DNA from: an uncultured Pseudomonadales bacterium
GTDB taxonomy: Bacteria > Patescibacteriota > Microgenomatia > UBA1400 > PJMF01
Reading direction: 5' to 3'
Assembly: GCA_964455555.1 (NCBI GenBank)
Contig: CAYVXV010000001.1
Span: 149,096 to 213,095 of the forward strand
DNA length: 64,000 nt
The translations under genes were made by a program, and so were the position numbers. Every line of letters starts with the position of its first letter. Within the stretch, counting starts at the first letter, position 1. This document shows, one piece after another, positions 11,211 through 60,969 of the stretch. Below the pieces are notes generated by a model, which made no database searches, had not been told where the DNA came from, and saw only the letters and a list, made by a program, of their open reading frames with translations.

Positions 11211-13337
11211 TCAAGATTCAGGCGGTGTGTAATCCTGGATTGATTGTTGGCCGTGATATCTTACTCCCTCTCTTCCAAGCGGTTCTTGAGCCGCAGGCGC
11301 AGGGCTACCATTGGATTGGGGATTAGGATTTTCTGACTGGGCCGATGCTTGTTCAGGAGGGTTTTGCCCTGGTTCGCCGTCGCCTTCTGTCTGGTAGTAG
11401 GCTGGAGCCGGCCTGTTTTGTTCGGTCTCCAGTTTTTTTCTGGCTTCAATCTGCCGCCGCTTAAGTATTTCCTCTGGGTTGCTGGTGATAACCTGATGTT
11501 CTTCGTCGCTAGCCACCACTCTGAGGGCTACATGGTTTTGTCCGGCAAAGAAGATCCCTTCCCCAATATCGGAAGAAATTAGAAGTTGGCGCTCTCCCTG
11601 TGAGAGATAAAAGGTCTCTGACAAAACGGGGATTGAAGCGGTTGACTGCTTCATTAAAAATTGTATTGAAGCATTGGTGACAATAGCTTTGCCATAATCG
11701 TTGTGCAAAAAGTCCTCAACATCCTGAGTGATTGTGGTAATGCCTAAATAATATTTTCTTGAACGCTTAACCATTGAATGCAGGAACGAAGCTGAATCCT
11801 GATGCTTCATGAAATACCAGGCCTCATCAACCACGAGGATGCGTTTCTTGAGGTCTTTTTTAATTCTGGTCCAGATAAACTCTAGGATTATATACATAGC
11901 AATCGGTCGGAGTTCTTCCTCCATCTCCTTAACCGAAAAAACCGTAAGTTGGTTGCGGATATCCAGGTTGGAGGGTTGGTCAAAAATACCCCGGAATGAG
12001 CCGGTGATAAACTTCTCCAGCCTTGAAGCAATGTCGTCAGAGTCCTTGTTTTCCATGCCAATTAAAACCTTGTAAACATCTTCCATCAAGGGAGGTTCAT
12101 TGGTTTGGGTGGCTGGATCCGGAGTAATTCCCTTGGCTTTGTAGGCAGCTACCAAGGCGCGGTCAAGGATGGCGTCCTGCTGAGGCGTCATTTCCCCGAG
12201 CATAACTTTTAGCAAGCCATGAAGGGAAATGATTTTTTGGCCCAGCTCATTTTCACCTTCTTCATAGAGATTGGACAGGTCGAAAGGATTGATTTTGGTT
12301 TCGGAACCGAAAGTAAAGTTGATATATTCGCCTCCGGCCGCCTTGCAAAGCTCCTCATACTCTTGCTCTGGGTCAAGGACAATTACTTCTGTGTCAAACA
12401 TGAGCTGCCTGAGGATTTCCAGTTTTACAGTGTAGGATTTTCCTGCACCAGATTTGGCAAAGATAACCATATTGGCGTTTTCCATTTTGAAGCGGTCAAA
12501 AATAACCAGCGAGTCATTGTGTTCGTTGATGCCGTACACAATGCCGGTTTCCATGGTCAGCTCCGAAGAAGTAAAGGGAAAAGTTGTAGCCAGAGACGTG
12601 GTGTCCATGTTTCTGGTCACCATCAGTTTGTCGGTGCCCATAGGTAGGGTGGTTTTAAAACCTTCGTCCATCTGGAGGGTAGCTTTTTTGGAGACAATTA
12701 ATAGTGAACCCAAGGAAGACTGTATGGCCTTAGTCACCTTATCCAGCTGTTCCTTGCTGTCTGCTTGTATAGTTATATAAAGCCCGAATTGATAGAAGCG
12801 CTCTGATCCTTTAGCCAGTTCTTCCCGGATAAAGCGGGCGTCTTCAAGTTTAACTTCTGTATTGATGTTGCTAATCTTTCCCGACCTAAGGTCTGATTGG
12901 ATTTCCGCCTCCATCTCTGTGATTTTTCTTTTAAGATTGTCGAGAATTTCGGCTGAATCAACCGGAAAAATGTACATGGATACATTTATCTGATGGGGAA
13001 AGTTAATCAGCGGTGAAAGCCAGTTGGCCGGGACAGCCCTTGGGTATCCGGCCACAAAAAGCGTTCTTGTGTAGGTGGAATTGATTTTTTGAAAGGTGAA
13101 ATCAACCTCAATTGCTTCTGGGGCAATAATATCTTGAATAGTAACCAGGCCTCGGGAAAACGCTTTTAGCTTTTCTTGGTTGCGCTGATCTAAGTTCTGC
13201 TGAACATTATTTTCAGAAGAACCGCTTTCTTTTGGTTTATTGAGGAATGGTAGTCCTGCAAATAGATTGGGCATCTTGTTTTTTTTGACTAACCGCTGTC
13301 TGCCGCTATCATCATTACTCGGAACATTAACAATCAA
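11211..13337 (-). CDS. VirB4/TrbE/CagE-family type IV secretion ATPase (core; lacks the extreme N-terminal VirB4 motif)
   Basis: Walker A 'FAKSGAGKSYTVK'; VirB4 hallmark Walker B 'ILVVDEAWYFM'; N-terminal CagE_TrbE-like 'YTRTLFVAGYPRAVPANWLSPLI'; P/Q/N-rich C-terminal tail. Annotated start is TTG; an ATG (MPNLF) lies at 13274. Confidence 0.85.
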   Translation of the reverse strand: MIVNVPSNDDSGRQRLVKKNKMPNLFAGLPFLNKPKESGSSENNVQQNLDQRNQEKLKAFSRGLVTIQDIIAPEAIEVDFTFQKINSTYTRTLFVAGYPRAVPANWLSPLINFPHQINVSMYIFPVDSAEILDNLKRKITEMEAEIQSDLRSGKISNINTEVKLEDARFIREELAKGSERFYQFGLYITIQADSKEQLDKVTKAIQSSLGSLLIVSKKATLQMDEGFKTTLPMGTDKLMVTRNMDTTSLATTFPFTSSELTMETGIVYGINEHNDSLVIFDRFKMENANMVIFAKSGAGKSYTVKLEILRQLMFDTEVIVLDPEQEYEELCKAAGGEYINFTFGSETKINPFDLSNLYEEGENELGQKIISLHGLLKVMLGEMTPQQDAILDRALVAAYKAKGITPDPATQTNEPPLMEDVYKVLIGMENKDSDDIASRLEKFITGSFRGIFDQPSNLDIRNQLTVFSVKEMEEELRPIAMYIILEFIWTRIKKDLKKRILVVDEAWYFMKHQDSASFLHSMVKRSRKYYLGITTITQDVEDFLHNDYGKAIVTNASIQFLMKQSTASIPVLSETFYLSQGERQLLISSDIGEGIFFAGQNHVALRVVASDEEHQVITSNPEEILKRRQIEARKKLETEQNRPAPAYYQTEGDGEPGQNPPEQASAQSENPNPQSNGSPAPAAQEPLGREGVRYHGQQSIQDYTPPES

Positions 13338-13472: not shown

Positions 13473-14966
13473 TTATTGTTTGTCTGGCTCGGTTGGAGCA
13501 GCGTTGGGCGAAACATTTTGGTCAGGCGTCGTAGATGTTGCGGCCGCAGGGTTAGAGCCAAGTTCTCCCAGTGTCTTATTAATCTCATCTTGAGCTGCTG
13601 TAAGTTCGTCGTCTGCAGGAGGTGGACTGCCGGTTCCTTCTCCGGCTGGTTCTGGGCTTGCGGACGGAGCAGGCGGCACTTCCTGTTTTTGAACCTGTTG
13701 TTCTTGATTTGGCGTCAAGTTAACCTCGTTCGGCGCACCGGTTTGTGCAGCGGGCTGCCCGGAAGTTGGTTCTGTGGTTGCCTCAACCATTGGTGTGGGA
13801 GGGGCAGTGGGCATTGGAAGAGGAGCTTCTTCAGGAGCTGTGTCTGAAGAAGTTTCTCCCTCTGGCTTTTGGATGGTTTGAGACTCTACCGGTACCGGAG
13901 GGACAGCATCACCCTCACTAGGCATAGCTGGAGTTGGGGGAGGTGTAATTGGGTTTGGAGTGGAATCGCCCTGACCCCCATTTTCAACAACAACTTGTTC
14001 GAGTGTCATTGGAGTTGGCGCAGCACTGGCCTGCGGCTCGGTTGGAGTAACCTGGGCACCAGTGTCAGGTGCGGTGGTGTCAGCAATGGGGTTGGGTAGT
14101 TCGGTCGGAGCAGCTTGTTGTTCAGCTGGAGCCGGCTGCTGTGCTTGAGCCGGAGCAGGTTCGACTTGTGGCTGAGTAGGCGGCTGTGTTGGTTGCTCGA
14201 CTGGAGCCAATTGTTCTTCGGTTCCGGGCTGAGTGGCCTGCGTCTCATCCGGGTTGTTGGGTGTATTTTGCGGCATGGCAAATCCTTCAAAACTCGCTTT
14301 TACTAGTGGTGTTGTATAGCTGTTGCTGTCTGCAATTCCTTGCCCTTCCGCAGCTTCGGGATTGTAGCTTAAATAGAATAATTGAATAATTTCTTGAGTA
14401 GTGAGTTGATTTGAATAGAGGCCTATTCTGGCAAATTGAGAAATAATGTGATCCCGTTTGGGTTCCAGAATATTTTGAGCTTTTTCCAGCAAAACGCTTC
14501 TTTCTATTTGTGTTACATCAAATGTTTGCTGTCCCGGAAGCACGCTTTGAGCGGTTAATAAGCCTAGTTCGAGAGGGCCGGCGGGGATAACAACATAAAA
14601 CTTTTTATCAAGCACGTTGCGCTCGTGAATTAAGTTGCTTACAAATTCGCGGTAGCGGCCAATCCGGTGGCGTTTTTCTTGAGTAGAGGCCTGAGCCTCC
14701 TGCTCCTGAAGCCTTCTTAGATAACTGGTTACATCTTTTGTTTGAGAGCGGACCAACACCTGAATTGGATAATTGAGGGAATTCAACAAGCCGGCATAGG
14801 CGTAGATAATGCTGTCCTGTTCTTCCTCGGCTAGAAGGCCGAAGTTCATCGCGTCGACGGTTAGGATGAGTGATGTAGTGCCATCCTTCATAATCACTAA
14901 ATCATTAGTGATATCGTGAATATCAAGGTATTGTTGAGTGGTGGAAGAAATTGTTTGTTCTGCCAT
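13473..14966 (-). CDS. VirB4 N-terminal-domain-like protein with ~270-aa P/T/Q/A-rich disordered tail (putative detached N-terminus of VirB4)
   Basis: 'DLVIMKDGTTSLILTVDAMNFGLLAEEEQDSIIYAYAGLLNSLNYPIQVLVRSQ' mirrors the extreme N-terminal motif of VirB4/TraC ATPases (compare A. tumefaciens VirB4 'IVLLEDGSIMSIARIDGVAFELEEIE...IYAHLVRH', recalled from memory); no ATPase motifs; lies directly upstream of the ATPase ORF. Confidence 0.5.
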   Translation of the reverse strand: MAEQTISSTTQQYLDIHDITNDLVIMKDGTTSLILTVDAMNFGLLAEEEQDSIIYAYAGLLNSLNYPIQVLVRSQTKDVTSYLRRLQEQEAQASTQEKRHRIGRYREFVSNLIHERNVLDKKFYVVIPAGPLELGLLTAQSVLPGQQTFDVTQIERSVLLEKAQNILEPKRDHIISQFARIGLYSNQLTTQEIIQLFYLSYNPEAAEGQGIADSNSYTTPLVKASFEGFAMPQNTPNNPDETQATQPGTEEQLAPVEQPTQPPTQPQVEPAPAQAQQPAPAEQQAAPTELPNPIADTTAPDTGAQVTPTEPQASAAPTPMTLEQVVVENGGQGDSTPNPITPPPTPAMPSEGDAVPPVPVESQTIQKPEGETSSDTAPEEAPLPMPTAPPTPMVEATTEPTSGQPAAQTGAPNEVNLTPNQEQQVQKQEVPPAPSASPEPAGEGTGSPPPADDELTAAQDEINKTLGELGSNPAAATSTTPDQNVSPNAAPTEPDKQ

Positions 14967-15028: not shown

Positions 15029-16240
15029 TTAGGCACTCCTTATTTCGAGTGGGGCAACAGGCTCTCCTTTCAAAACTATGGTTTGTGGAGTAAAGCTGAA
15101 ACCATCCTTTTCGACATTTACCAAATATTCACCATTTTTTAGAGGGGTGGTAATGAAAAATTGGCCTAATGCATTTGTTTTAACAGCTCGAACAATTTGG
15201 CCTCCGAGTTGTATTTCTACAATAGCGTTGGTAATTAATTCGTTGTTTTGGGTTAATACCATTCCGACGAGCTTGTTGGCTTCTTCCGGAGGATCCGGGA
15301 AGGGCAGGTCTAAATTAAACGCTGCCTCTGTTGCATTTTGAGTTTCCTGTACTGGGACTGATGTGCTAGTCTCAACATAGGTGTGGCCGGAAGCATTTGT
15401 TTGAGTTTGTTCTGATTCAGCTGCGGCTGATTCCTCTATTATATTTGCTACCTGCTCAACTTCGGGAGGAGTGTTTTCGGGCACATCGACTAAGGTGGCA
15501 GCCTCTTCTGCGGTAAGATCAGCAGTTTTCTTAACCTCAAACTCTTCTTGTTGATTTATCGAAGTAGCCAGGTTTGGAGTCGAAATTTTTTTAATTGGCG
15601 CGTCATCAGCGATGCTGGTGGGAGCGTAAATAGTTACTTCTTCTCTGGTTTTAATAACTGGAGAAGTTTGGCTCCGCATGCTTCTAACTCTGACCTGAAG
15701 ATTTGGTTTGGCAGCAACTTTTTTCTGCGCGGCTGTGGGTGTGATTGGCTCCGGAGCAGCATCAAAGAAAGAAGAGATTTGCTGTATCCTACTAGCTTCC
15801 CAGTCAGTCAGGTCGCTCTGATATTCGGAAGGTGTATTTACCGAAGTGATGTATTCTTTAATCCTAGCTTTTTTTACCGGACTTAAGTCTAGTTCCGGTT
15901 CATATTGTGTCTGGTTAGCTGTGGGTTCGTATAAGAAAGGTTCCGGAATATTGGATGTTCTTTTCCAAAAAAACTTAGTTGGTTTGTAGAGTGTTCTGAA
16001 AAAAGTGATAATCCAGTGATCAAGTGGCCTTTCCTCAATCGGCAAGAAAGCCGCTCCGGCTCCCAGGCCTACGGAGAGCAGTATGAACGCCCACTTAATT
16101 GGTGTAGGCAGGTTGGTGCTGTAAAAAGCGACACCAACAACCACGCCAATGAATATTTCAGCAAACTGCTTGAGGGTCATGCTGCCAATAATATGAAAAC
16201 GGTAGTTGGTGATGTCTTGTGGGATTGGGTGTTCTCGCAT
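15029..16240 (-). CDS. VirB3/PrgI-like two-TM membrane protein fused to a C-terminal CarboxypepD_reg-like beta-sandwich domain
   Basis: N-terminal 'RFHIIGSMTLKQFAEIFIGVVVGVAFY...WAFILLSVGLGAGAAFLPIE' (two TM helices, GxxTxxQ-like motif) in the position typical for VirB3 just before VirB4; C-terminal 'AIVEIQLGGQIVRAVKTNALGQFFITTPLKNGEYLVNVEKDGF' is prealbumin-like; SD 'aggaaag' upstream. Confidence 0.45.
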   Translation of the reverse strand: MREHPIPQDITNYRFHIIGSMTLKQFAEIFIGVVVGVAFYSTNLPTPIKWAFILLSVGLGAGAAFLPIEERPLDHWIITFFRTLYKPTKFFWKRTSNIPEPFLYEPTANQTQYEPELDLSPVKKARIKEYITSVNTPSEYQSDLTDWEASRIQQISSFFDAAPEPITPTAAQKKVAAKPNLQVRVRSMRSQTSPVIKTREEVTIYAPTSIADDAPIKKISTPNLATSINQQEEFEVKKTADLTAEEAATLVDVPENTPPEVEQVANIIEESAAAESEQTQTNASGHTYVETSTSVPVQETQNATEAAFNLDLPFPDPPEEANKLVGMVLTQNNELITNAIVEIQLGGQIVRAVKTNALGQFFITTPLKNGEYLVNVEKDGFSFTPQTIVLKGEPVAPLEIRSA

Positions 16241-16328: not shown

Positions 16329-17369
16329 TTAAAAGCCTGAAGTAGTTTCAATTGCCGGAGTAATGAATGTTAAGAAAACATTATCGAATTCTGAGCCGGC
16401 GCTTTCTCCTTCCGCCTCAATCCGGAAATATGGGTAGTAAGCCTGGGTTCTAGGAGAGTAGCGGTATTCAAGCTCTAGATTATTGACAGTGATGGTTTTA
16501 AGGGAGGTAATCTCAAAGTTGGCTGCAAGGTTTCCCGCTTCAATTATTTCAGCACTGCCGCCGGCGATTTTTTCTCTGATCTTTGACAGCGGCAGAATGT
16601 TTTTGTCTGCTATTTTTGTAGCCATGGGCGGCGGCGGGTAAAACTCTGCTTTTTTAATTTCGTAGTTAAAGCCAACCTGGATTGTTGCAAGTGATTTTCT
16701 GGCAGCTGAGTAGTAGGCGGGATAATTATCAATTAAAAAAGTAAACGGGATTACAATCGTTTCAGCAGTGCCGGCCGACGCAGTCCTGGATTCCTGAGCC
16801 AGGAAGGTGATCTCTCTTCTTAGAGGCGAGAGTTCGGGATAACCGGGAATTTGTTTAATGAAGGCGCTGGCGGCATTAATTGCAGGCTCAATTACAATTT
16901 CCTGATTATCATCTGATATTTCGGGTATCGAAACCACATACATTAGTTTGTTCTCGTGCTCAAGGAAGCTGAGTGAGCGCTTGGTCTCATAATCGGTCCA
17001 CGTACTCACCTGATATGGAGATGTGTCCTGAGGCAGGCTTAAGCTTTCTGCAACTTGTTGGGCAAAATTTCTAGTAGATGAGTAGGAAGGAGTGCCGGTG
17101 TAAACACCGAGGGTTTTGGGAAAGTCAACTTCGTCTTGAGAAATATTCATAACTACCCGTACGTTTTCGGGCGGCTTAGTAATGCCCGAGCTGATTCCTT
17201 CAATTGTCACAGGCGTGCTTTCAGGAGGTTCTGGTGTAAGGATAAGTAATAGGGCTGAACCCACCAGCACAAACCCAAGAAGGATAATGAAGTAGCGCAA
17301 TGGGTTGGCTTTTATCTTTTCCGGAATACTCCGGATTGTTTGCAGTATTTGTTCTTTATTAATTGTCAT
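16329..17369 (-). CDS. N-terminally membrane-anchored extracytoplasmic protein (possible VirB8/TcpC-like T4SS component)
   Basis: Single N-terminal TM 'YFIILLGFVLVGSALLLIL' and ~300-aa ectodomain; only positional and topological support. Confidence 0.3.
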   Translation of the reverse strand: MTINKEQILQTIRSIPEKIKANPLRYFIILLGFVLVGSALLLILTPEPPESTPVTIEGISSGITKPPENVRVVMNISQDEVDFPKTLGVYTGTPSYSSTRNFAQQVAESLSLPQDTSPYQVSTWTDYETKRSLSFLEHENKLMYVVSIPEISDDNQEIVIEPAINAASAFIKQIPGYPELSPLRREITFLAQESRTASAGTAETIVIPFTFLIDNYPAYYSAARKSLATIQVGFNYEIKKAEFYPPPPMATKIADKNILPLSKIREKIAGGSAEIIEAGNLAANFEITSLKTITVNNLELEYRYSPRTQAYYPYFRIEAEGESAGSEFDNVFLTFITPAIETTSGF

Positions 17370-17403: not shown

Positions 17404-20400
17404 TTAATTGCTTGTACCAACTGTTTGAATGAATGCGTTTTTTAAACCTATGTTAACCGGCATGGGCCTGCCTCCGGGCATTGAGAGCGAGTTTGAACAG
17501 AAAGAAGCAGAGCCTCCGGAGTCAAGGAAAATAAATTGGTCGGCACCGCATTGCTGCATAATATCTGCCAAGTCAGAATAGTTGCCCGTTCTGATTGAGG
17601 CAAAAATAATTGCTTCTCCAGTGAAATCGGTGCACTCGCCATTTGCGTTGCCATAACCCAAGGCAACCCTGTTTCTCTCTCCACCTCCGTCCGGATGATC
17701 ACTGAGTACACCGGTAACAGCTTTTTGATAGCCTCCCACTACAAAAGGCATGTCGGTGCGGTTGTACCAGGCAGAAGGGACGGGGTCAATCCGGAAGTTT
17801 CCACTGTTGTCTACAGTGAACATTCTCATAGTTTGTTCCATGTAAGCAGGATCCCGACCGTTGGCATTGGCAAAATACACCGGGGGGTTGGCTCCGCCTA
17901 TACCAATCGGCTGAGTGGGGGTGTTGTAGTAATTGGCATTAATGGCAACATCTAGCTCTGGGTTGTTTCTAAACCAGTCGCAGGTGTATTTTGGAGAGCT
18001 GGCTTCAGCACTATTACTGACAACAAAGTTGTCAGCGGTTTTTGGCCCAATGGCTACATACCCGGATACGCCGGCATCATCGTCATCCTGAGCAGCCGCA
18101 CAATCACGCGAATTAACGCTCATGCCATAAATTGCGCTTTCATCTGCGCGGATGGCGCTTTTTTCAGCTGCCGTAAGCGGCAGGATGTCCAAGACATCTA
18201 TGCCGACTGTTTCAAAGTGAAGGTGGTTTCCAGAAGAGTTTCCTGTGCTGTCAACCCTGCCCAGAAGTTCTCCAGCTTGAACTTGAAGATCGCGGGTAAT
18301 ATTGGACATACTGATTCCTGGTGCAAAGTCGAGTAAGTGGGCAAAAATCATGATATAGCTGCCGGTATCAACAATGACGTGGGTGCCGTACTTATATTGG
18401 CCGTCACTGCTCCTCATTCCTGTGCCATCTGGATAGAACGAGGCAGTTCCGGCATATGGTGTAAATACTGGTGCATTGGCACCACCATCTGAAGCAGAGT
18501 TGTCCCAGGTAGTAATATCAATGGCAACACCGTCTCCAGGGTAAGAGCCATAGCCGCCCCGTATTACAGCATGAGGGCCACCGCAACCCGCGCAAAGCGT
18601 GGGGTCATAATTTTGGTAAGCCCTAATCACCCCAGTGGTTGGCCAGCAGCCTTCAAAATTTGAAAGTGTCCGGTCAAAAGTGCTGCTCTTATATGAAGCC
18701 GGCAGCGGGCCTAAGAAAGCAGCAAAAATAATAAGCAGGGTTATCAGCGAAATTAAAATTGAACCGGCTATGGTACCTGCAGCTGCTGCGGTACCAACAG
18801 GAAGTGTGGACAGATAACTGGCGGCTGTTCCCGCTACATTGTAACTGCCGCCTGCGGTTGCTGTGCCTGTGGCGCCGGTGGTAGCGCCGGCTGTTTGGGC
18901 GCTTGGCGGCAGGGAACTGGATCCTAAGGCAGGATATGAAGAAGTGCCGGTTGAGCCGCCAAATGACGGCAAGCTGAAGCCCCCGCCTCCTATTGCCGCA
19001 CCGGCGTTGGCGCCGACTGCGGCTCCAAGGCCAGCTCCGACAACTGCTCCTACAGGTCCTCCAATCAAGAAGCCAGCAATGCCACCGCCAATGCCTCCAA
19101 CCAGCCCGCCAATAAGGCCGCTTATTCCGGCTGTAAACATTTTTATCAGGCCTTGAACTACAAAAGCTCCGCCCACAGCCAAAGCTCCAAGAATCCACTT
19201 GCGCTTTTTCTTGTCTGCCAGAAGAGCTGCTGCTTTACCCCACGGGCCTGCCGCTGCCAGGGCTTTGGTTGCCAACTTATCACCGCCGGCTTTTTTCAGG
19301 GCACTTAGCGCTTTTCCTCTAGCATCAACCTTTTTGCTGAAGCGGTCAGTGAAGCGGCTTCTGGCCGAGGCGAATCTGCCTCTTATACCCCCCGGCGGCG
19401 GTCTTTGTGCGCCTGGAATGCCGGCTGGAACACCTGCCACATCATCGGCTGAATAAGTTCTATCACCACCCGCCCCGACGGGCGCACCTCCGTGGGATTC
19501 TGAAACAGCGGCCTCATTAGCTTGGATTAGCTCCATTAAGCTTGCTTGGTGGAGAGCCGCTAGGCTTTCATACTCCAATTGCTCGAGAATGCGCTCTCTT
19601 TCCTCTAAGGATGTTTGGGCAATAAATGACTCAACATAGAAGCGGCGCAGATTTTCTATATAGATTGCTTCTTGATGAGCTGTTTCCAGTTGAAAAAGCC
19701 TTTCCTGGTCGATTTCTGCCTGAAGCTGAATGGCTTCCTGTGCACGCATTTGCAGTTCTGCAAAATTGAGCAGATGGATGTTGGTCGGCACCATGTTGCG
19801 GTCGGTAATTTTATCCAAATCGTGGCCCAGGTATTCATAAATGAGTGTTTTTTCATCAGGTGAAAGGGCATTCCATGCAATCAAGTGGCGCTTATGCTGG
19901 TCTTTCACACTATTGGTGACTGCCCTTGCCACGCGTTCTGCACCATGCTCCTGAACAGATGAGCTGGCGCTGCTCAGTGAGGGGAGGAGCCGGCGTTCAA
20001 AAATTTGGTGATTGCCGGCTGCCAGCTCATCAGCTTCTTTGCCGCTCAGGGGCGCCAAACCTGCTGACAGGCTGGTTTTTTCCGCTTCTAAAGCCAGTTC
20101 AACAGCAAAAAGTTGAGCGTATTTAATGAGGAGTTTTCTCAAGCGCCTGATGGCATCTTCGGTTAAGCGGTATTCCTCCGGTATACCCAGCATTAAGAGC
20201 AGGTGCTCATCGCTCATGTGTTGTAGAAGCCAGGCTGCAGTGTGAGGGTGGGTGGCAAGGCTTTGAAGCGAAGCTTGGCTTGAAACATCAATGTTCACAA
20301 ACTCAAACTCAGCCCCTTGGTTAATTAATAGGGACTTTAGGGCAACCTGGATTCGGCCTTCTACTTGAGTGAATTCCCTGGTGCCCAGGCCGACAATGGT

Positions 20401-21540
20401 GGGGCTGTCAGATTTAAGGACATCTTTAAGCTCTTGGCGGAAATTGTAGCCGGTGGTAAAGCCTGAAAGTTCTTCAAGGGCAATGGTATGGTTTTTAAGC
20501 GAATCAACCAATTGAGTAGCGTGCTGAGCAAAAGCCTCGCGCTCTTCTTCTGGCAGACTGAGAGTGTAGTCTTTGTAAAAGTTCTCGAGCGCCGCCACAA
20601 ACTGGGGTGAGCGGGAAATTTTTAGGTAAAGCTCATCGAGGATTTCCAACCGGCGGCGTGGATTAGCAAAAAGCAGGCCAATTTCCGCCTTATCCTTGCT
20701 GAGCATGATTTCCATGACTTCATTGAGCAGCAGATTTTTAAGCTCGGGGTTTGCCTCCAGATAAGCATAACTAATGTCCTTGGAGACAAAAAGCTCGTGC
20801 AAAGCCCGGTTGTAAATCCATGTTGCTTCATACTGCATTTTTTCCAGATCATCTCTGGTGGCAGTAGGTTCGACCTCTTCTTCCTGAGGGGGTAGTTGGT
20901 CAGCCCCTCCGGTCTCCGGTTCCTCTGGAGTTGTTGGAGCGGCTGAAACACCAGTGGGCGCTGGTGGTTCGTTAATTTGTTCATCTAGCTCATCAACCTC
21001 ATCTTCGAGTAGGTCCTGATTGATTTCCTCGGCAGCCTCTGAAAACTCCACTATTGTTGCCCGGGCTACAGCTTGCAGTAGTTTAAGAATTTTATCTCTA
21101 TGGCTATGAGCAATAGTTTCTGATACTAATTTTTCATCATCCCGAGAACCCGCGATTTCTATCAGTAATCGCTTCTGCAGGTCGGAAGACCTGAGAAAAC
21201 TATAAGCATTCAGGCTGGCCTGAGTTTCAGCCGTACCCCTGTGTAACAAAATAGCGGCAGCATCAGAGAGCAGCAGAATAGCGTCGGTATAAAATAGGTA
21301 ATTTTTGCGGTCCTTAGGATCAATTAGGGCTTTATCAGCATCAAATAGTGAAGAGGTGTGAACCTTAAAACTGGGTAGTTGGACCGGTTGCTGATCGAGT
21401 AGTTCGCCGTTAGGTTTAAAGGCGCGGCTGAGGTCAATAACTAAATCACGGACCTTTTCAAGTTTTTCGCTTGGGTCAATAAACTTCACTTGCTGAAGCT
21501 CAGTCAAAGGGACTGATTGATTTTGCTCGTCAGGCGCCAT
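17404..21540 (-). CDS. giant membrane protein: cytoplasmic alpha-helical/coiled-coil N-terminal half, glycine-zipper membrane segment, extracellular M23 (LytM) peptidase domain plus phosphodiester-glycosidase (NAGPA/DUF2233)-like domain
   Basis: M23 signature 'GTHVIVDTGSY...GNSSGNHLHFETVGIDV' (HxxxD and HLHFE); C-terminal 'FIFLDSGGSASF' NAGPA-like motif; Gly-rich 'GGLVGGIGGGIAGFLIGGPVGAVVGAGLGAAVGANAG'. The ORF track starts at TTG 21618; ATG (MAPDEQ) at 21540 is preceded by a 'tataat'. Confidence 0.7.
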   Translation of the reverse strand: MAPDEQNQSVPLTELQQVKFIDPSEKLEKVRDLVIDLSRAFKPNGELLDQQPVQLPSFKVHTSSLFDADKALIDPKDRKNYLFYTDAILLLSDAAAILLHRGTAETQASLNAYSFLRSSDLQKRLLIEIAGSRDDEKLVSETIAHSHRDKILKLLQAVARATIVEFSEAAEEINQDLLEDEVDELDEQINEPPAPTGVSAAPTTPEEPETGGADQLPPQEEEVEPTATRDDLEKMQYEATWIYNRALHELFVSKDISYAYLEANPELKNLLLNEVMEIMLSKDKAEIGLLFANPRRRLEILDELYLKISRSPQFVAALENFYKDYTLSLPEEEREAFAQHATQLVDSLKNHTIALEELSGFTTGYNFRQELKDVLKSDSPTIVGLGTREFTQVEGRIQVALKSLLINQGAEFEFVNIDVSSQASLQSLATHPHTAAWLLQHMSDEHLLLMLGIPEEYRLTEDAIRRLRKLLIKYAQLFAVELALEAEKTSLSAGLAPLSGKEADELAAGNHQIFERRLLPSLSSASSSVQEHGAERVARAVTNSVKDQHKRHLIAWNALSPDEKTLIYEYLGHDLDKITDRNMVPTNIHLLNFAELQMRAQEAIQLQAEIDQERLFQLETAHQEAIYIENLRRFYVESFIAQTSLEERERILEQLEYESLAALHQASLMELIQANEAAVSESHGGAPVGAGGDRTYSADDVAGVPAGIPGAQRPPPGGIRGRFASARSRFTDRFSKKVDARGKALSALKKAGGDKLATKALAAAGPWGKAAALLADKKKRKWILGALAVGGAFVVQGLIKMFTAGISGLIGGLVGGIGGGIAGFLIGGPVGAVVGAGLGAAVGANAGAAIGGGGFSLPSFGGSTGTSSYPALGSSSLPPSAQTAGATTGATGTATAGGSYNVAGTAASYLSTLPVGTAAAAGTIAGSILISLITLLIIFAAFLGPLPASYKSSTFDRTLSNFEGCWPTTGVIRAYQNYDPTLCAGCGGPHAVIRGGYGSYPGDGVAIDITTWDNSASDGGANAPVFTPYAGTASFYPDGTGMRSSDGQYKYGTHVIVDTGSYIMIFAHLLDFAPGISMSNITRDLQVQAGELLGRVDSTGNSSGNHLHFETVGIDVLDILPLTAAEKSAIRADESAIYGMSVNSRDCAAAQDDDDAGVSGYVAIGPKTADNFVVSNSAEASSPKYTCDWFRNNPELDVAINANYYNTPTQPIGIGGANPPVYFANANGRDPAYMEQTMRMFTVDNSGNFRIDPVPSAWYNRTDMPFVVGGYQKAVTGVLSDHPDGGGERNRVALGYGNANGECTDFTGEAIIFASIRTGNYSDLADIMQQCGADQFIFLDSGGSASFCSNSLSMPGGRPMPVNIGLKNAFIQTVGTSN

Positions 21541-21719
21541 GCTTTGATTATAGCGCAGGGTGTGTAGAGAATGGGAGGGTGAAGCGGGTATGTAAACCGC
21601 TGCTTTTCCTTTTTTCAACGTGTATGAAATAATAGAGCTATATTTACCTGCGGAAGGTTTTAAGTGTTAGTAGTTGATGCCAGATGTAATCATCAGGCGT
21701 TTTTGATATAATTCAGACA

Positions 21720-26405: not shown

Positions 26406-26508
26406 GCGCTCATTATAACAAGAACTCCAAGTTGAGCATAGGGGTTAGGTTGTGTTTTCCGCCCGGCCAAAACTCCACATATCCGATATACTGTGATATA
26501 CTTTCATC

Positions 26509-30931: not shown

Positions 30932-31363
30932 CTAATATTGAAAATCAGAAGTGGGAATGCCGAATTGGGTAATAATGCTGACGCCGGTAAACTGAGAAAT
31001 TAGATTTAGGATAATAAAGGCGCTTAGAGATACAACCAAACCGATTACCGCATAGGTCATCATGCCTTTGGCACTTTGCACTTGTTGGGTGCTGCCACCT
31101 CCGGAAAGCATGTAGCGGAAGGCTCCGACAATAAACATCACAAAGCCCGCCAGCCCGATAACGGTAATGATTACCGTGAACACATTGGCAATCAGGCACT
31201 CCAATCCTTGGAGGGTGGCTACATCGCCACTGCCGTATTCTGTATCAGCTACGCAGACACCAGACCAAGATGAAGTTTGGGCAGAAACAGGTGCTGCGCC
31301 GGCGAAGGCCCCAACCAGAACAATTAAAAATAAGATTGCAGAGTGTTTAAGGCTTTTTAGCAT
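30932..31363 (-). CDS. T4SS pilin-like (VirB2/TrbC-type) paralogue P1
   Basis: Signal peptide (MLKSLKHSAILFLIVLVGAFAGAAPVSAQ), then C-terminal two-helix module 'VIGLAGFVMFIVGAFRYMLSGGGSTQQVQSAKGMMTYAVIGLVVSLSAFIIL'. Start trimmed from 31447 to the internal ATG to remove overlap with P2. Confidence 0.6.
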   Translation of the reverse strand: MLKSLKHSAILFLIVLVGAFAGAAPVSAQTSSWSGVCVADTEYGSGDVATLQGLECLIANVFTVIITVIGLAGFVMFIVGAFRYMLSGGGSTQQVQSAKGMMTYAVIGLVVSLSAFIILNLISQFTGVSIITQFGIPTSDFQY

Positions 31364-31391
31364 TAATTTAGTATAACAATTTGCGGCAGGA

Positions 31392-40589: not shown

Positions 40590-40591
40590 TC

Positions 40592-41914: not shown

Positions 41915-42058
41915 GAATTAATTTTCTTATCAATAGTAACCGGACAGTATCGATATTGTAACCTACGCGTAATTTTAATGCTACAATCGTCTGGAGGAAC
42001 GGGTACAATGTGAGGTGGTATAGTACAGTGGCCTTTACTTAGCCACCAGCCAAGAATT

Positions 42059-44491: not shown

Positions 44492-44575
44492 TTACGGCAT
44501 TATGCACTATGGCCATAAAAAAATGCAACAGTTTGATTTGGTGTTTCCCTCGGGCTGTCATACAATACCACCAGA

Positions 44576-56565: not shown

Positions 56566-57846
56566 ATGGAAATTGCCATTTTCGGTATTACTTTTCACCT
56601 TTATGGCTTAATTATTGGTGTGGCGGCGGTTGTTGCCTTATTGTTGATTGAGTACCGCGCTAAGCTGCATGGCATTTCAGCGAGGTGTGTTTGGACCGCC
56701 GCCGCCGCTGTTGTTGGCGGTGGGGTAATAGCTGCCAGGCTTTGGCACATTGCTACAGACTTTCAGCTTTATGGCAAGATTAGCCCGAACATGCTTTTTA
56801 CTTGGCAGGGAGGGCTGAGCATTATCGGTGGAGTAGTTGGGGGAATATTAGTTTTGGCATTTGGACTGAAGTATTTATCTGCCTGCAAAGGCGTCTCACG
56901 CTTAGTGTTGGCAGATTTGGCAATTTTTGGTTTGCCGGTGGCTCAAGCCATTGGTCGGCTTGGCAATTTTGCCAATCAGGAGCTTTATGGTTTGCCAACT
57001 GCATTGCCTTGGAAACTTTACATTTCTCCCGAGAGGCGCCCGCCTGGTTTTGAGAACTCGGAATATTTTCACCCCCTATTTGCTTATGAGATGGCCTTTA
57101 CCGGTTTATTTGCTCTTGGCGTATGGTGGTATGACCGTAAATATTTGTCCGCATCAGAGCGGAAGCAAAGAATTGGGAAGGGAACTTATTTCTTGGTATA
57201 TCTGGCTTATTACAGTGCAGTTAGATTTGGCTTAGACTTTTTTAGAATCGATAAAACAATCGCAGCCGGCACCGGGCTGGGTATTAATCAACTTGCACTG
57301 GTTCTGGGCCTAGCTGTTATTGCCTTTGCTGCCTACCGGTTAAAACTATTAAAAAGAACTCAGACCACAGCAGCTGCAGCCTTAATTATTATCGGTTTAG
57401 TCATTTATTCTGTTGTATTTATCAGGCTAAATAATCTCAGCAGCACCCCAAATGTGGAACAGGCAGTAGTGCAGGAAAATCTTAGAGAAATAGTTGTTGG
57501 TTCTAATACTTTAACAGTAGAGTTGGTAGATTCACCAGAAACACTTAGCCGGGGATTGGGGTACAGGGATGAAATTGGCAGTGACGGCATGCTTTTCTTG
57601 CTTCCCGAACGAAAAACACCGGTATTTTGGATGAAGGGAATGAGGTTTGCCATCGATATTGTTTGGATTGATGCTGGTGCGGTAGTTGAAATCACCCGCA
57701 ATATTCCCAACCCTCCATCTGACAAGTTGCCGGATAAAAATTTGCCCCGTTATTCTCCTAGCACACTGGTTATGATGGTGCTCGAATTGCCTGCCGGTGA
57801 GGCGGAGAGGCTGGGTATAAAAATCGGAGACCAAGTCTCTTGGTGA
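56566..57846 (+). CDS. lgt: prolipoprotein diacylglyceryl transferase fused to a C-terminal DUF192 (COG1430) domain
   Basis: Lgt signature 'AQAIGRLGNFANQELYG'; C-terminal 'RGLGYRDEIGSDGMLFLLPERKTPVFWMKGMRFAIDIVWIDAGAVV...LELPAGEAERLGIKIGDQV' matches DUF192. Confidence 0.85.
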   Translation: MEIAIFGITFHLYGLIIGVAAVVALLLIEYRAKLHGISARCVWTAAAAVVGGGVIAARLWHIATDFQLYGKISPNMLFTWQGGLSIIGGVVGGILVLAFGLKYLSACKGVSRLVLADLAIFGLPVAQAIGRLGNFANQELYGLPTALPWKLYISPERRPPGFENSEYFHPLFAYEMAFTGLFALGVWWYDRKYLSASERKQRIGKGTYFLVYLAYYSAVRFGLDFFRIDKTIAAGTGLGINQLALVLGLAVIAFAAYRLKLLKRTQTTAAAALIIIGLVIYSVVFIRLNNLSSTPNVEQAVVQENLREIVVGSNTLTVELVDSPETLSRGLGYRDEIGSDGMLFLLPERKTPVFWMKGMRFAIDIVWIDAGAVVEITRNIPNPPSDKLPDKNLPRYSPSTLVMMVLELPAGEAERLGIKIGDQVSW

Positions 57847-57880: not shown

Positions 57881-58594
57881 ATGAACGACACTGCCCAAAC
57901 CTCTTCCAGCATGATGGACAGGCTGAAAAGTTCCTTTTCTCCTGGACAACCGTCAGCAAGCGACCATCAAACCAATAATGGAGGGGCTAGCACGCAACCT
58001 TTTCCACCAACTGCAACCGAGACCTTAGACAAGCAAACACCACCTTCTAGTCTTTCCGACAATGATAAGCTAGACATTTTCAATGAGGTATTAGATCAAG
58101 TTGAAAGCCAATCGGCGGGCGATTCTCTTCACGCTGATTCCGGCCAAGATCCTTCAATGCTCCGCCAAGCGTTGCCCCAAGCTGTGGATTATGCAACTGA
58201 TACTCTAAACCCTGCCTACACCTCAAGATCTGGAGCCAAAGAAGCAATAGATGGCGGTTCATCCATAGATCAGGGAATTGCCGAAACTCCAGGATTGCAA
58301 TATGTGGAGACAGAGAAAAATCCTGAAATTCCGGTAGAAGTGGAAGGTTTTATCAAAAGAGTAGAAAGCCAGTCACAAGACAATCCTCCGGAGATTATAA
58401 TTGCCGATGGCAGCGGTGAATCAGATGCGGTTGATTATCCCAGCCGGCCGGTTATTGTTTTGCCGATTACTGAAGAAATTGAAGATCAAGGCCTAAAAAA
58501 GGGCCCGGCTTATAGTGTCCGTTGGCTGGTTGAGTGGAGTCATAAAATTATTAAGATGTTTGCAGGCAAAGTTGTTTACAAAACAGATAGCTAG
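57881..58594 (+). CDS. hypothetical acidic, S/T/Q-rich protein immediately upstream of the coupling ATPase
   Basis: ORF only. Confidence 0.35.
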   Translation: MNDTAQTSSSMMDRLKSSFSPGQPSASDHQTNNGGASTQPFPPTATETLDKQTPPSSLSDNDKLDIFNEVLDQVESQSAGDSLHADSGQDPSMLRQALPQAVDYATDTLNPAYTSRSGAKEAIDGGSSIDQGIAETPGLQYVETEKNPEIPVEVEGFIKRVESQSQDNPPEIIIADGSGESDAVDYPSRPVIVLPITEEIEDQGLKKGPAYSVRWLVEWSHKIIKMFAGKVVYKTDS

Positions 58595-58629: not shown

Positions 58630-60969
58630 ATGAGAAATCTTGCAGAAATAAATCTAGCCAGCACCGGCCTTCAGCTGATAACCAGCCTGGTTATGCTGTT
58701 ATTGGTGATAGCGGTCTTGGCTGTTTTTGGCTACATGCTGTTTCAATGGTGGAAACACCGCAATCGAGAAAAATATGCCCTGAACTTTGTTACTTTGTTG
58801 GTCCGGTTGCCTAGGGATAGTGAAATTAAAATTGATGCTGCCGAACAGTTGTTTGCCGGCCTTCACTCCCTCAAGAAAAGCGGCTTTTTTGCTTGGGCTA
58901 AACCGGAAGATGTCTTTGCCTTTGAAATTGTTGCCTTGAAGGAAGAGTTGTCATTTTATGTAAGTTGTTCGCGCAAAATAAGGGATTTAGTAGAAAAGCA
59001 GGTTCACGGCGCCTATCCTAATGCTGATATCAAAGAGGTAGACGAAGTCAATATTTTCAATGAAAAAGGCCGGGTAGAATTTTCTTCGCTTAAATTGGAC
59101 AAGGCCAACTATTTCCCGATTAAGACATATAAAGACTTACCGACTGACGGTTTATCTCTGATTACTTCAGCATTATCCAAAATGAATACCGGAGAAGGCG
59201 CCATCCTGCAGATTTTGCTGCACCCGGAGGGCAGCAAATGGAAAAAACAAGGCAGAAAATATGTTTCCGGGGAAAAGAAGCGCGAATCCGATCCGGAAAA
59301 GGCTACTTATGCCCATGACCCCAAAGAAATGGAGAATGTTGGTAACAAGGTTGAAAAACCCGGTTTCAGAATTTCCCTGAGAATTGTTGTTTCTGCTCCG
59401 GAGCAATATCAAGCAGAGGCGCACTTGAACAATATTAAAGGTGCTTTTGCTCAATTTACTTCTGCCTACAATTCTTTCAAAAGGGGAAGAATTTTCTTTA
59501 AACATCTGTTCATGATTGATTTTATTTACCGGTACATGCCGCTGTTAAACCGAAATACCTTTATTTTAAATACTGAAGAATTGGCCACGGTTTTCCATTT
59601 TCCCAATAAAACAGTGGAGACTCATCATATCCGCTGGCTCAATGCTAAAAACGCACCTGCACCGCAAGAAATTCCTACAGAAGGCCTGTATTTGGGGACT
59701 TCAAATTATCGTGGGGAAAAGAGGAAAATATTTATCTCCGATGATGACCGTCGCCGGCACATGTACATTGTTGGAAAGACCGGTACAGGAAAATCAGAGT
59801 TCCTCAAGGAAATGATTCTTCAGGATATAGAGGCAGGCAAAGGTGTTTGTGCCATTGACCCCCATGGAGAATTTGTTGAGGATATTTTGCAACTGATGCC
59901 GCCAGAGCGGGCTGATGATGTGATTTACTTTAACCCCTCAGATTTAGTGCGGCCGATGGGGCTGAATATGATGGAGGCTGAGACCGAGGAACAACGCCAT
60001 TTTGTGGTCAGTTCAGTTATTGGCCTTATGTATAAGTTGTATGACCCGCACCGGACAGGTATTATCGGACCTCGGTTTGAACACGCAATCCGCAACGCCA
60101 TGTTAACGATAATGTATGTAAAAGGCACTACTTTTGTGGAATTGGTGCGGATTTTGACTGACTCCAAATATGTTGAAGAACTGCTGCCATATGTCAAAGA
60201 TCCGGTGGTCAGGCGATACTGGACTGATCAAATTGCCCAGACATCCGATTTCCATAAATCAGAGGTTTTGGACTATATTGTCTCAAAATTTGGAAGGTTT
60301 GTGACCAATAAGACCATGCGCAACATCATTGGCCAGCCTCAAAGCGCCTTCAGTTTCCGCCAAGCTATGGATGAGCAGAAGATTGTTTTATGCAACCTCT
60401 CTAAAGGAATTTTGGGCGAAGAGGATGCAAAATTCCTAGGTTTGATTTTGGTCCCCAAGGTGCTCACCGCTGCCATGAGCCGTCAGGATATGGCTATGTC
60501 AGAGCGCAAGGATTTTTATCTTTACGTAGACGAGTTTCAAAACTATGCCACTGAAGATTTTGCCGTGATTTTGTCGGAGGCAAGGAAGTACCGCCTTAAC
60601 CTAATTGTGGCCAATCAGTTTGTTTCCCAAATTGATGAAGAAGTGAAAAACGCAGTTTTTGGCAATGTCGGCACTATGGTATCTTTCCGGGTTGGTGTGC
60701 CCGATGCCAACTTCCTTCAGCATGAATATGCCCCGACCTTCAATGAAACTGACCTGACCAATATTGAAAAATACCATGTTTACATCAACACCATCGTAAA
60801 TAATGAGCCAGTGCCGCCCTTCAGCATGTCGCTTTATAAAGACATGGACAAGGTTAAAGCCAGGATGAACCCAAGGCAAGCGGAGATGATTAAACAGCTT
60901 TCACGCTTGAAGTACGGTAAAGACCGGGACATGATTGAGGCGGAAATTAAGAGCCGCTCAAACCTATAA
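58630..60969 (+). CDS. type IV coupling protein-like ATPase (VirD4/TraG/TraD family; FtsK/HerA-like alternative not excluded)
   Basis: N-terminal membrane helix 'LQLITSLVMLLLVIAVLAVFGYMLFQWW'; Walker A 'HMYIVGKTGTGKSE'; Walker B 'FYLYVDEFQNYA'. Confidence 0.75.
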   Translation: MRNLAEINLASTGLQLITSLVMLLLVIAVLAVFGYMLFQWWKHRNREKYALNFVTLLVRLPRDSEIKIDAAEQLFAGLHSLKKSGFFAWAKPEDVFAFEIVALKEELSFYVSCSRKIRDLVEKQVHGAYPNADIKEVDEVNIFNEKGRVEFSSLKLDKANYFPIKTYKDLPTDGLSLITSALSKMNTGEGAILQILLHPEGSKWKKQGRKYVSGEKKRESDPEKATYAHDPKEMENVGNKVEKPGFRISLRIVVSAPEQYQAEAHLNNIKGAFAQFTSAYNSFKRGRIFFKHLFMIDFIYRYMPLLNRNTFILNTEELATVFHFPNKTVETHHIRWLNAKNAPAPQEIPTEGLYLGTSNYRGEKRKIFISDDDRRRHMYIVGKTGTGKSEFLKEMILQDIEAGKGVCAIDPHGEFVEDILQLMPPERADDVIYFNPSDLVRPMGLNMMEAETEEQRHFVVSSVIGLMYKLYDPHRTGIIGPRFEHAIRNAMLTIMYVKGTTFVELVRILTDSKYVEELLPYVKDPVVRRYWTDQIAQTSDFHKSEVLDYIVSKFGRFVTNKTMRNIIGQPQSAFSFRQAMDEQKIVLCNLSKGILGEEDAKFLGLILVPKVLTAAMSRQDMAMSERKDFYLYVDEFQNYATEDFAVILSEARKYRLNLIVANQFVSQIDEEVKNAVFGNVGTMVSFRVGVPDANFLQHEYAPTFNETDLTNIEKYHVYINTIVNNEPVPPFSMSLYKDMDKVKARMNPRQAEMIKQLSRLKYGKDRDMIEAEIKSRSNL

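Follow-up and report, generated by a model that had tools for sequence, protein, structure and literature searches.

Type IV secretion systems (T4SSs) occur almost universally in the phylum Patescibacteria (Candidate Phyla Radiation, CPR), where they have proved essential in one tested species and, in a monoderm, apparently form a pilus. In 2023, Wang et al. (PMC10633639) described a Gram-positive-like, relaxase-less T4SS with a series of pilins that is essential for the epibiotic growth of Southlakia epibionticum, and favour protein export or another non-DNA role. In a survey of 3,035 genomes, Quiñonero-Coronel et al. (2025, Microb Genom; PMC12102498) found a monophyletic Patescibacteria VirB4 clade nested in MPF_FATA, with TrsD-like proteins beside virB4, PrgI/VirB3, VirB1-like proteins that contain M23 domains, and 441 arrays in which 2–11 VirB2 genes share an identity of approximately 25%. 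In this survey VirB6 was ‘scarce’ in Microgenomatia, with extreme divergence being suspected, VirB8 was nearly absent, type IV coupling proteins (T4CPs) were mostly encoded far from virB4, and relaxases were missing from all but a small minority of Patescibacteria genomes. The loci were located near dnaA, dnaN, rnpA and rpmH, those of Microgenomatia and Paceibacteria lying next to dnaA. Here we analyse such a locus in a 64-kb stretch of DNA (contig CAYVXV010000001.1, positions 149,096 to 213,095; in the following ‘the window’), which belongs to a contig of at least 226 kb and in which 58 open reading frames (ORFs) were scanned with Pfam.

In a 2025 review (PMC12857230), the Patescibacteria systems are listed as a new subgroup of T4SSs, with speculation on a pilus that serves as a conduit, and a 2026 preprint reports host RNA acquisition as well as tubular structures at the parasite–host interface, for which the identity of T4SS pili is suggested. 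For ordinary Gram-positive T4SSs, too, a 2025 preprint proposes pili of the VirB2-like kind, with PrgF of pCF10 as a proposed VirB2-like pilin.

The window is a chromosome stretch of an ultrasmall CPR/Patescibacteria bacterium with the replication origin at its centre. We conclude, with a probability of roughly 0.9, that the system encoded there is an origin-proximal chromosomal T4SS of the Patescibacteria type, which is derived from MPF_FATA, lacks a relaxase and features an array of VirB2-like pilins. A first-pass annotation, made from the letters of the sequence, had listed a VirB4 ATPase with a DEAW Walker B motif, a split VirB4, a VirB3-like protein with two transmembrane (TM) segments, a VirB6/TrbL-like polytopic protein, two giant murein-remodelling proteins (one with an SLT domain), eleven VirB2-like pilins and a VirD4-like coupling ATPase, all of which are borne out by the family and structure comparisons reported below. 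Its view that this is not a textbook system has not stood, since the features in question had already been published (PMC10633639, PMC12102498). The kind of system was described between 2023 and 2025, and its recognition here is correct, yet not new. As a clean and complete case from a Pacebacteria/Microgenomates-like lineage of the phylum, the window confirms rather than extends published work. What it adds is modest: a VirB6 candidate found by structure where hidden Markov model (HMM) surveys found few, a candidate for the major pilin (pil3), pilin orthology, a conserved gene pair of p237 and the T4CP-like ATPase, and a negative result for VirB8. Its value lies in a sharper parts list for the lineage, which could be used to guide cryo-electron tomography, proteomics and genetics.

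There is no difference in kind between the systems surveyed in PMC12102498 and the one in the window. Both have an MPF_FATA-like VirB4, a TrsD-like protein, PrgI/VirB3, M23 hydrolases and a remote T4CP, both are without a relaxase, and both lie near dnaA, dnaN and rnpA; even pilin identity is similar, with a mean of 26% for the eleven pilins in the window versus the published figure of approximately 25%. VirB6, scarce in the survey, is represented here by a VirB6-like protein recognized by its structure, and the window holds features outside the survey's listing, namely p951 and p319 on the opposite strand, the YycI-like p346 and the p237–T4CP pair. The T4SS of S. epibionticum ML1 (SEML1_0006-0019), whose essentiality was shown with transposon sequencing (PMC10633639), is alike in gene content, being chromosomal, Gram-positive-like and relaxase-less, with a pilin series in the cluster and peptidase and lysozyme genes beside virB4. 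It differs in belonging to the class Saccharimonadia and in having six pilins as opposed to eleven. Wang et al. saw no recognizable coupling protein in that cluster, and the T4CP-like gene of the window likewise stands outside the cluster.

Among the monoderm MPF_FATA systems—CTn2 (CD1110 family), pGO1 (TrsC/TrsD/TrsE) and pCF10 (PrgF, PrgH, PrgI, PrgJ, PrgK, PrgL)—the likeness consists in a VirB4 of the CD1110 family, PrgI and accompanying wall hydrolases, with the split between the TrsD-like protein and VirB4 resembling TrsD/TrsE of pGO1. In contrast to these conjugation systems, however, the window is without a relaxase, oriT, integrase or PrgB-type adhesin and has no detectable VirB8-like protein, it encodes eleven pilin paralogues rather than one, and the locus is chromosomal at oriC rather than part of a mobile element. 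The rvh T4SS of Rickettsiales and the VirB2 arrays of Bartonella and Anaplasma are also chromosomal and belong to obligately host-associated bacteria, with duplicated components, divergent VirB2 paralogues and scattered islands, but they are diderm systems of the MPF_T type, in which VirB7/9/10 form an outer-membrane core and the hosts are eukaryotes. Moreover, the stable one-to-one pilin orthologues of the window fit fixed distinct roles better than antigenic variation.

Motor, membrane core and chromosomal residence

The cytoplasmic motor and its membrane partner are encoded by three neighbouring genes next to dnaA:

11211–13337, minus strand: VirB4 ATPase, a 708-aa ORF if read from TTG, with translation more likely beginning at ATG 13274 (687 aa)
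13473–14966, minus strand: TrsD-like protein p497 (497 aa), the detached VirB4 N-terminal piece (residues ~1–225) followed by a tail
15029–16240, minus strand: PrgI/VirB3-like protein, a two-TM hairpin with a C-terminal CarboxypepD_reg-like domain

A VirB4 product of 687 aa is also called on a Logan contig. The protein matches P-loop_TraG (2.5e-23), AAA_10 (8e-15) and CagE_TrbE_VirB (1.7e-4) in Pfam, its translation shows Walker A (KSGAGKS) and Walker B (VVDEAW) motifs, and its assignment to the MPF_FATA type comes from NCBIfam conju_CD1110 (1.9e-114; 383.6 bits versus an equivalog cut-off of 325; model positions 176–733) together with the solved C-terminal domain of VirB4 in the PDB (4ag5, 5.3e-49). 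Searches returned 416 relatives, and the best 80 of these 416 are 70–88% identical, most of them in metagenome-assembled genomes (MAGs) labelled as Patescibacteria lineages. The labels of the closest relatives read Pacebacteria, Woesebacteria, Microgenomates, Paceibacterota or Patescibacteria group, and NCBI gives the phylum of one Pacebacteria relative (the source of locus L025) as Minisyncoccota; we take the remaining labels (‘uncultured Pseudomonadales’, TM6, Limisphaerales) to be mislabels.

By its matches, p497 corresponds to a detached N-terminal piece of VirB4. It aligns with the N-terminal parts of VirB4 models only (VirB4_plasma 102–233 at 1.6e-6 and CD1110 2–103 at 0.02 in NCBIfam), it matches the TrsD model NF041427 at 1.4e-4, and a precomputed Pfam record assigns it to the TraC-like family PF26593. 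Thus, p497 and the VirB4 ATPase match complementary parts of full-length VirB4 models, which argues for a split VirB4. Comparing the two protein families with hhalign gave no significant match (probability 0.8%, with shallow alignments), which fits complementary VirB4 parts, not paralogues. A Pfam scan of the isolated N-terminal domain of p497 found nothing, with the Pfam copy used probably being without PF26593; its C-terminal tail of 270 residues, which is of low complexity and abounds in Pro, Ala and Gln, is not conserved. The PrgI-like protein exceeds the gathering score of PF12666 (6.9e-7; 30.2 bits versus 27), its TM segments are predicted at residues 17–35 and 48–66, and its additional domain matches CarboxypepD_reg at 3.9e-7.

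The region 11211–35397 forms one contiguous conserved cluster that ends beside dnaA, with the dnaA start codon 158 bp from the virB4 stop codon. The first-pass annotation had pictured a machine dispersed among core genes; this holds for the pilin genes pil10 and pil11 (40056–41914, ~5 kb away) and for the T4CP-like gene, which are set off by core genes and are the only parts outside the cluster, but not for the contiguous region itself. Synteny was followed in 80 species-level genomes (loci L001–L080), where the neighbours of VirB4 included DnaA in 76 cases, p497 in 74 and PrgI, next to the TrsD-like gene, in 70. The eight long loci shown share the order M23 giant, p346, PrgI, TrsD-like protein, VirB4, DnaA, DnaN, (RnpA), YidC, Jag, RNaseH, DUF4012 and L25. 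Homologues of the VirB6-like protein led to three further genomes, in which this synteny continues upstream, with a divergent extracytoplasmic function (ECF) sigma factor, a pilin array (7 genes in one genome, 9 in the other two), a counterpart of the SLT giant, an opposite-strand DHH-like gene, the VirB6-like gene, an opposite-strand gene for 979–1266 aa and a counterpart of the M23 giant. Only one of the contigs is long enough to show what comes next, namely PrgI, the TraC-like protein and VirB4.

Conservation differs strongly along the cluster. Median identities are 79% for VirB4 (79 species loci), 66% for the N-terminal domain of the TrsD-like protein (72 loci) and 65% for the PrgI hairpin, compared with 58% for DnaA, 53% for YidC and 46% for both DnaN and L25, and they fall to 24% for the surface-exposed p346 and to about 24% for the M23 giant. 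With VirB4 at 79% and DnaA at 58%, the cytoplasmic motor is under stronger constraint than the replication initiator, while exposed parts diverge fast. We infer that one would expect such a pattern if the machine is essential and turns its outer face to another organism.

Such data also bear on whether the locus might be a degraded or cryptic integrative and conjugative element (ICE) of the MPF_FATA type, with a relaxase and integrase that lie outside the window or were recently lost. The membership of VirB4 in the CD1110 conjugal-transfer family, the presence of a T4CP-like ATPase and the small minority of Patescibacteria genomes in which the survey did find relaxases (PMC12102498) would speak for this; synteny with dnaA, dnaN and yidC across the 80 species-level genomes, a VirB4 that is more constrained than DnaA, and a T4CP-like gene that sits in a conserved housekeeping neighbourhood, with no relaxase among the homologous window genes, all speak against it. 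So does native codon usage, as GC content at third codon positions is 0.454 in T4SS genes and 0.450 in core genes, and the correlation of relative synonymous codon usage between the two (0.88) falls inside the spread of comparisons between halves of the core set. No relaxase, integrase or transposase family was matched among the 58 ORFs in Pfam (relaxases were also sought in NCBIfam), the 64 kb contain 0 tRNAs, and a search of the window for flanking direct repeats or att-like repeats yielded none, its sole direct repeat of more than 31 nt reflecting the paralogy of pil2 and pil3. None of the hallmarks of a conjugative element, i.e. relaxase plus oriT, insertion marked by integrase, att site or tRNA, and a mobile composition or distribution, was seen in this relaxase-less locus near dnaA. 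We therefore regard an ICE as very improbable. The claims of the first-pass annotation that mobility genes and repeats are absent from the 64 kb and that base composition resembles that of core genes are confirmed by these counts, and synteny, native codon usage and the literature uphold its picture of a resident, vertically inherited machine of Gram-positive/CPR type near oriC that probably does not serve conjugation. Its suggestions of DNA uptake or host contact are speculative, as such suggestions also are in the literature.

Pilins and envelope components

The pilin genes and the transcription signals in their midst are as follows:

30932–31447, minus strand: pil1, PF18895 at 3.6e-9; likely start Met at ORF residue 29 (MLKSLK...); signal peptide and two-TM hairpin
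31392–31967, minus strand: pil2, PF18895 at 7.7e-6; N-terminal extension of ~85 aa; hairpin 67% identical to that of pil3
32060–32452, minus strand: pil3, PF18895 at 3.2e-10 and TrbC/VirB2 PF04956 at 3.5e-4; orthologues 58–69% identical
32008–32577, minus strand: signals around pil3, with two sigma-70-like promoters (32577–32549 and 32523–32494, 11/12 each) and a terminator (32038–32008, 13-bp stem)
32609–33187, minus strand: pil4, PF18895 at 1.1e-7; likely start Met36; Gly-rich N-terminal extension; hairpin alignment
33087–33515, minus strand: pil5, PF18895 at 4.4e-7; orthologues 43–50% identical
33521–33898, minus strand: pil6, PF18895 at 1.5e-5 (25.4 bits, just under the gathering score); orthologues 49–52% identical
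33969–34502, minus strand: pil7, PF18895 at 8.2e-5; Cys-rich N-terminal extension; hairpin alignment
34517–35023, minus strand: pil8, PF18895 at 2.3e-4; hairpin 46% identical to that of pil7
35026–35397, minus strand: pil9, PF18895 at 6.8e-5; first gene of the array; orthologues 58–62% identical
40056–40589, minus strand: pil10, PF18895 at 3.1e-5; detached, Cys-rich extension; hairpin alignment
40592–41914, minus strand: pil11, 440 aa; signal peptide, ~340-aa Cys-rich extracellular domain and C-terminal pilin hairpin (TM 378–396 and 407–425)

Ten of the eleven proteins match PF18895, five of these ten above the gathering score, and pil11 is recognized by PF18895 (3.2e-3) together with an HMM built from the other ten (9.2e-10). 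A C-terminal two-helix hairpin is present in 11/11, with a maximal pairwise hairpin identity that is reached by pil2 versus pil3; a hydrophobic leader at the N-terminus is seen in every pilin except pil6, and about half show an AxA|Q cleavage site. The nine array pilins (30932–35397) have collinear one-to-one orthologues in two other species (L084 727–5402 and L085 1430–5647) with identities of 33–69%, those of pil1 being 55–69% identical, and the positional counterpart is the best match in 17/18 comparisons. This collinear orthology suggests that the paralogues are old and individually maintained, which argues for distinct roles rather than interchangeable variants.

Among the pilins, pil3 is notable for being the shortest and for matching pilin models best, and the promoter-like and terminator-like sites flanking it are the best of the region in a consensus scan. 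An equivalent bracketing of the pil3 orthologue is seen in the two other species (L084 3725–4298, L085 4035–4551). With promoter-like and terminator-like sites of its own in three species, pil3 would be a separately and highly expressed pilin and is probably the major subunit. In the other pilins the N-terminus is extended by ~30–350 residues, and several of these extensions are Cys-rich. In solved conjugative pili (F-pilus, T-pilus) the termini face outward. Given this orientation, the extensions would decorate the outside of the filament, and pil11 in particular is a candidate for a pilus-borne adhesin.

Divergent from the array lies a putative regulator:

35431–36012, plus strand: ECF-type sigma-70 factor (Sigma70_r2, Sigma70_r4_2 and Sigma70_ECF in Pfam)

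Its position is matched by a divergent sigma factor gene in L085 and in a JGI 3300072015 contig, which makes it a candidate regulator of the pilin array by inference only. In the region 35431–36591 it is followed by a 64-aa ORF (36050–36244), whose C-terminus is hydrophobic by eye, and by p114 (114 aa, predicted TM), an arrangement that two relatives have kept. A sigma/anti-sigma pair may control the pilin array.

Between the pilin array and the motor genes lie six genes for large or membrane-associated proteins:

16329–17369, minus strand: p346, bitopic membrane protein with one N-terminal TM segment and an extracellular tandem alpha/beta domain, YycI/PepSY-like
17404–21618, minus strand: giant envelope protein of 1404 aa, with ~800 cytoplasmic residues at the N-terminus, then a TM region rich in Gly, an M23 domain and, at the C-terminus, a NAGPA-like domain
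21720–24575, plus strand: p951, large, probably cytoplasmic, a conserved cluster resident on the opposite strand
24645–26405, minus strand: p586, VirB6-like polytopic membrane protein with a cleavable signal peptide and ~7 hydrophobic helices
26509–27468, plus strand: p319, DHH-like, on the opposite strand
27526–30879, minus strand: secreted giant hydrolase of 1117 aa, with a signal peptide, an N-terminal GH5-like and a C-terminal SLT_3 lysozyme-like domain

In the 1404-aa giant, whose position is conserved in relatives, Peptidase_M23 is matched at 3.1e-8 (residues 1069–1137; M23 matches in the PDB are weak), and NAGPA, a phosphodiester glycosidase family, over its full model length at 3.7e-4 (21.2 bits versus a gathering score of 25). 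The 1117-aa giant matches SLT_3 at residues 992–1108 (1.7e-6; 28.8 bits versus 27) as well as Cellulase/GH5 (1.6e-4; 21.7 bits versus 23.5) and the GH5 mannanase 3ziz in the PDB (5.7e-5), with its isolated middle part yielding nothing in a sub-domain Pfam scan. Its orthologue directly follows the pilin array in three relatives. The protein would have a VirB1-like role.

For p586, no Pfam match was found, and a PDB search with the profile of its family found nothing. In structural comparison, however, TrwI/VirB6 was the top match in two independent programs, and NCBIfam gives weak matches to TM proteins for conjugation from Mycoplasma ICEs and from pLS20. This polytopic protein is thus a VirB6 candidate for the lineage, as judged from its modelled fold. 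Public names for its homologues include ‘phage tail tape measure protein’ and ‘ABC transporter ATP-binding protein’ (P0082, P0114).

The protein p346 evolves fast. Homologue searches, limited by their word index, gave 2 and then 5 proteins, and the structure model rests on five sequences; the family profile matched nothing in a sequence search of the PDB. An identical protein is present on an NCBI contig and in the Logan run SRR9016294. The notion that p346 could be the missing VirB8 was rejected in a fold comparison, the fold being YycI/PepSY-like and not VirB8/NTF2-like.

The two opposite-strand genes are constant residents of the cluster, as three relatives carry at the same position and strand a gene for 979–1266 aa in place of p951 and one for 309–328 aa in place of p319. 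The family of p951 is very narrow, with only 31 clusters (at 50% identity) among 1.84 billion representative proteins and a conserved core at residues ~265–732; Pfam, NCBIfam and single-sequence PDB searches gave no match. The tie of p319 to the system consists in its conserved position only. It has a weak PDB match to the DHH family (4ls9, 6.6e-4), no Pfam match and no recognizable DHH motif, and is probably a degenerate DHH-like protein.

The T4CP-like ATPase and possible directions of transport

A further candidate part of the system lies near the far end of the window:

57881–58594, plus strand: p237, acidic protein of 237 aa, immediately upstream of the T4CP-like gene
58630–60969, plus strand: VirD4/T4CP-like ATPase of 779 aa, with one N-terminal TM segment, a ~310-aa cytoplasmic domain and a P-loop ATPase domain

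The ATPase exceeds the Pfam gathering score of TrwB_AAD_bind (1e-7; 31.6 bits versus 20.5), also matches DUF87 and TraG-D_C (1.3e-3), shows Walker A and B motifs (GKTGTGKS, VDEFQ) and finds DotL (5.8e-5) and TrwB (5e-3) in the PDB, and its best NCBIfam matches are T4CP families. Its predicted identity as a T4CP is thereby supported at the superfamily level. The ~310-aa N-terminal domain had no family match in an isolated sub-domain Pfam scan. One might still read both ATPases as FtsK/HerA proteins or as ATPases of type II secretion or type IV pili, with the small proteins being unrelated membrane peptides; this is what the first-pass annotation had named as able to overturn its proposal. Both ATPases do have DUF87/HerA-central-domain matches, and the T4CP-like protein has a sub-threshold match to FtsK_SpoIIIE (9.8e-4). 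For VirB4, however, the above-cut-off match to CD1110 and that to 4ag5 are far stronger and refute this reading, T4CP families are the best matches of the second ATPase, no ATPase family of type II secretion or type IV pili was matched, and the small proteins match the T4SS_pilin and TrbC families, so that this alternative is very improbable.

The T4CP-like ATPase is 64–89% identical in 26 related loci (L086–L111), with neighbours such as Lgt (37–48%) and GH3 (29–40%) being less so. A homologue of p237, which had no family match in Pfam including an isolated scan, precedes the T4CP gene in 20/34 metagenome loci, and the closer relatives keep the neighbourhood Pth, MFS, p121, GH3, Lgt, p237, T4CP, p117, MacB, ABC and HlyD. 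As a conserved gene pair, p237 and the T4CP-like ATPase would appear to be partners.

Several observations weigh against the reading of the locus as a Patescibacteria T4SS derived from MPF_FATA. The T4CP-like ATPase is under all NCBIfam T4CP cut-offs (SXT_TraD 9.6e-12, 44.1 bits versus 366; CD1115 5.1e-10, 38.8 versus 250), a simple hydropathy scan predicts one TM segment (20–38), not two, its gene lies 45 kb from virB4, and a T4CP homologue is reported to be non-essential in S. epibionticum (PMC12102498). Considering this distance, the weak scores and the non-essential homologue, the T4CP-like ATPase may not belong to the machine. In the cluster, no VirB8-like component of the PrgL, TraM or TcpC type was found. 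The first zinc-ligand motif of the M23 domain is non-canonical by eye, such that its predicted activity is uncertain, the promoter and terminator calls around pil3 are consensus matches only, and the relaxase screen covered 64 kb, with the contig being at least 226 kb long, so that a relaxase may lie elsewhere in the genome.

Taken as an MPF_FATA-derived T4SS, the system could work as follows. The pilins would be inserted into the membrane via Sec and then cleaved (at AxA|Q in about half of them), whereupon VirB4, the TrsD-like protein and PrgI, assembled on the VirB6 platform, would extract them and polymerize them into a tube, probably with pil3 as the major subunit; the other pilins with their variable and often Cys-rich extensions would probably be minor or surface-decorating adhesive subunits. 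The M23/NAGPA and GH5/SLT giants may open the cell's own wall, and possibly that of the host, for this structure, and the filament would contact the host cell and support macromolecule transfer. Host contact and macromolecule transfer, i.e. protein export or uptake of host material, is the most likely use, and conjugative DNA export is unlikely. Between export and uptake our assessment is about evenly split.

Uptake would make the system an import device like ComB of H. pylori or the archaeal Ced system, with DNA, RNA or other host nutrients as its cargo and the pilus as a feeding tube. Patescibacteria are without nucleotide synthesis, and reviews (PMC12857230 among them) propose the T4SS as an uptake route; the 2026 preprint with its host RNA acquisition and tubular structures, the lack of a relaxase in the window and the DHH-like protein inside the cluster point the same way. 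This support is circumstantial throughout, however, with p319 being apparently degenerate, VirB4 being far from CedB (64.8 bits versus a cut-off of 700) and CedD (29.4 versus 600), which led us to reject a Ced-like importer, and no uptake-specific component such as ComEC having been identified in the window. Import, which we consider possible but tentative, concerns direction and substrate only and is compatible with the anatomy given above.

Alternatively, the system may export protein effectors, including hydrolases, into or onto the host, in the manner of antibacterial or effector-translocating T4SSs, with the T4CP-like ATPase as the substrate receptor. The strong conservation of this ATPase (64–89%) and its conserved partner, the GH5-like, SLT, M23 and NAGPA-like domains, which could attack a foreign wall, and the preference of Wang et al. 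for protein export or a non-DNA role (PMC10633639) are in line with such a function. Yet no recognizable effector/immunity pairs were found, the T4CP homologue of S. epibionticum is non-essential while its T4SS is essential, and the hydrolases have Sec signals or TM segments and so would not need the T4SS for their own export. Effector export is therefore an equally tentative proposal.

Combining these elements, one can imagine a fixed heteromeric pilus, with pil3 as the major and its eight orthologous paralogues, pil10 and pil11 as minor or adhesive subunits, as well as p951, p346 and the p237–T4CP pair as true subunits of a variant Patescibacteria T4SS that replaced VirB8 and added a cytoplasmic giant. 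As a whole, this composite picture is doubtful.

Genomic surroundings

The genes around the system are largely those of a chromosomal core, as identified with Pfam:

Within 1–11 kb, housekeeping genes: valS (C-terminal part), L25, DUF4012 (1038 aa), RNase H, Jag/KhpB, YidC, RnpA, DnaN and DnaA
Beyond the cluster: ECF sigma factor, Idi, mevalonate kinase, diphosphomevalonate decarboxylase and UppS
Beyond the cluster: SpoIID, RecF, a Fic protein and an ATP-dependent DNA ligase
Beyond the cluster: two GT2 glycosyltransferases, Pth, an MFS transporter and a GH3 hydrolase
Beyond the cluster: Lgt fused to DUF192 and a MacB-type ABC exporter

A scan for DnaA boxes found a perfect inverted pair in the dnaA–dnaN spacer (9458–9477) and further boxes at 11149–11169. 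Across the whole window the total number of boxes shows no excess over chance, and the inverted pair at 9458–9477 is the only notable one.

Some of these neighbours deserve mention in their own right. The DUF4012 membrane protein (2353–5469) is a constant member of the origin-proximal block in ~56 related genomes. Mevalonate-pathway genes (36606–40012; Nudix-type isopentenyl diphosphate isomerase, mevalonate kinase and diphosphomevalonate decarboxylase) adjoin UppS in this CPR genome, and in one relative HMG-CoA reductase is found near them. The ATP-dependent DNA ligase (48154–49956, 600 aa) has the three domains (N-terminal, adenylation and OB) of its archaeal and eukaryotic counterparts, and no NAD-dependent DNA ligase was seen in the window. 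In the gene at 56566–57846, a DUF192 domain is fused to the C-terminus of Lgt (prolipoprotein diacylglyceryl transferase). Three antisense ORFs (26413–26739, 41911–42345 and 44500–44931) lie opposite real genes; two of them were scanned and had no family match, and all three are probably spurious.

Public labels in this part of the tree are unreliable, with many Patescibacteria MAGs being titled ‘uncultured Pseudomonadales’, ‘Limisphaerales’ or ‘TM6’ (L002, L004, L013, L062 and others).

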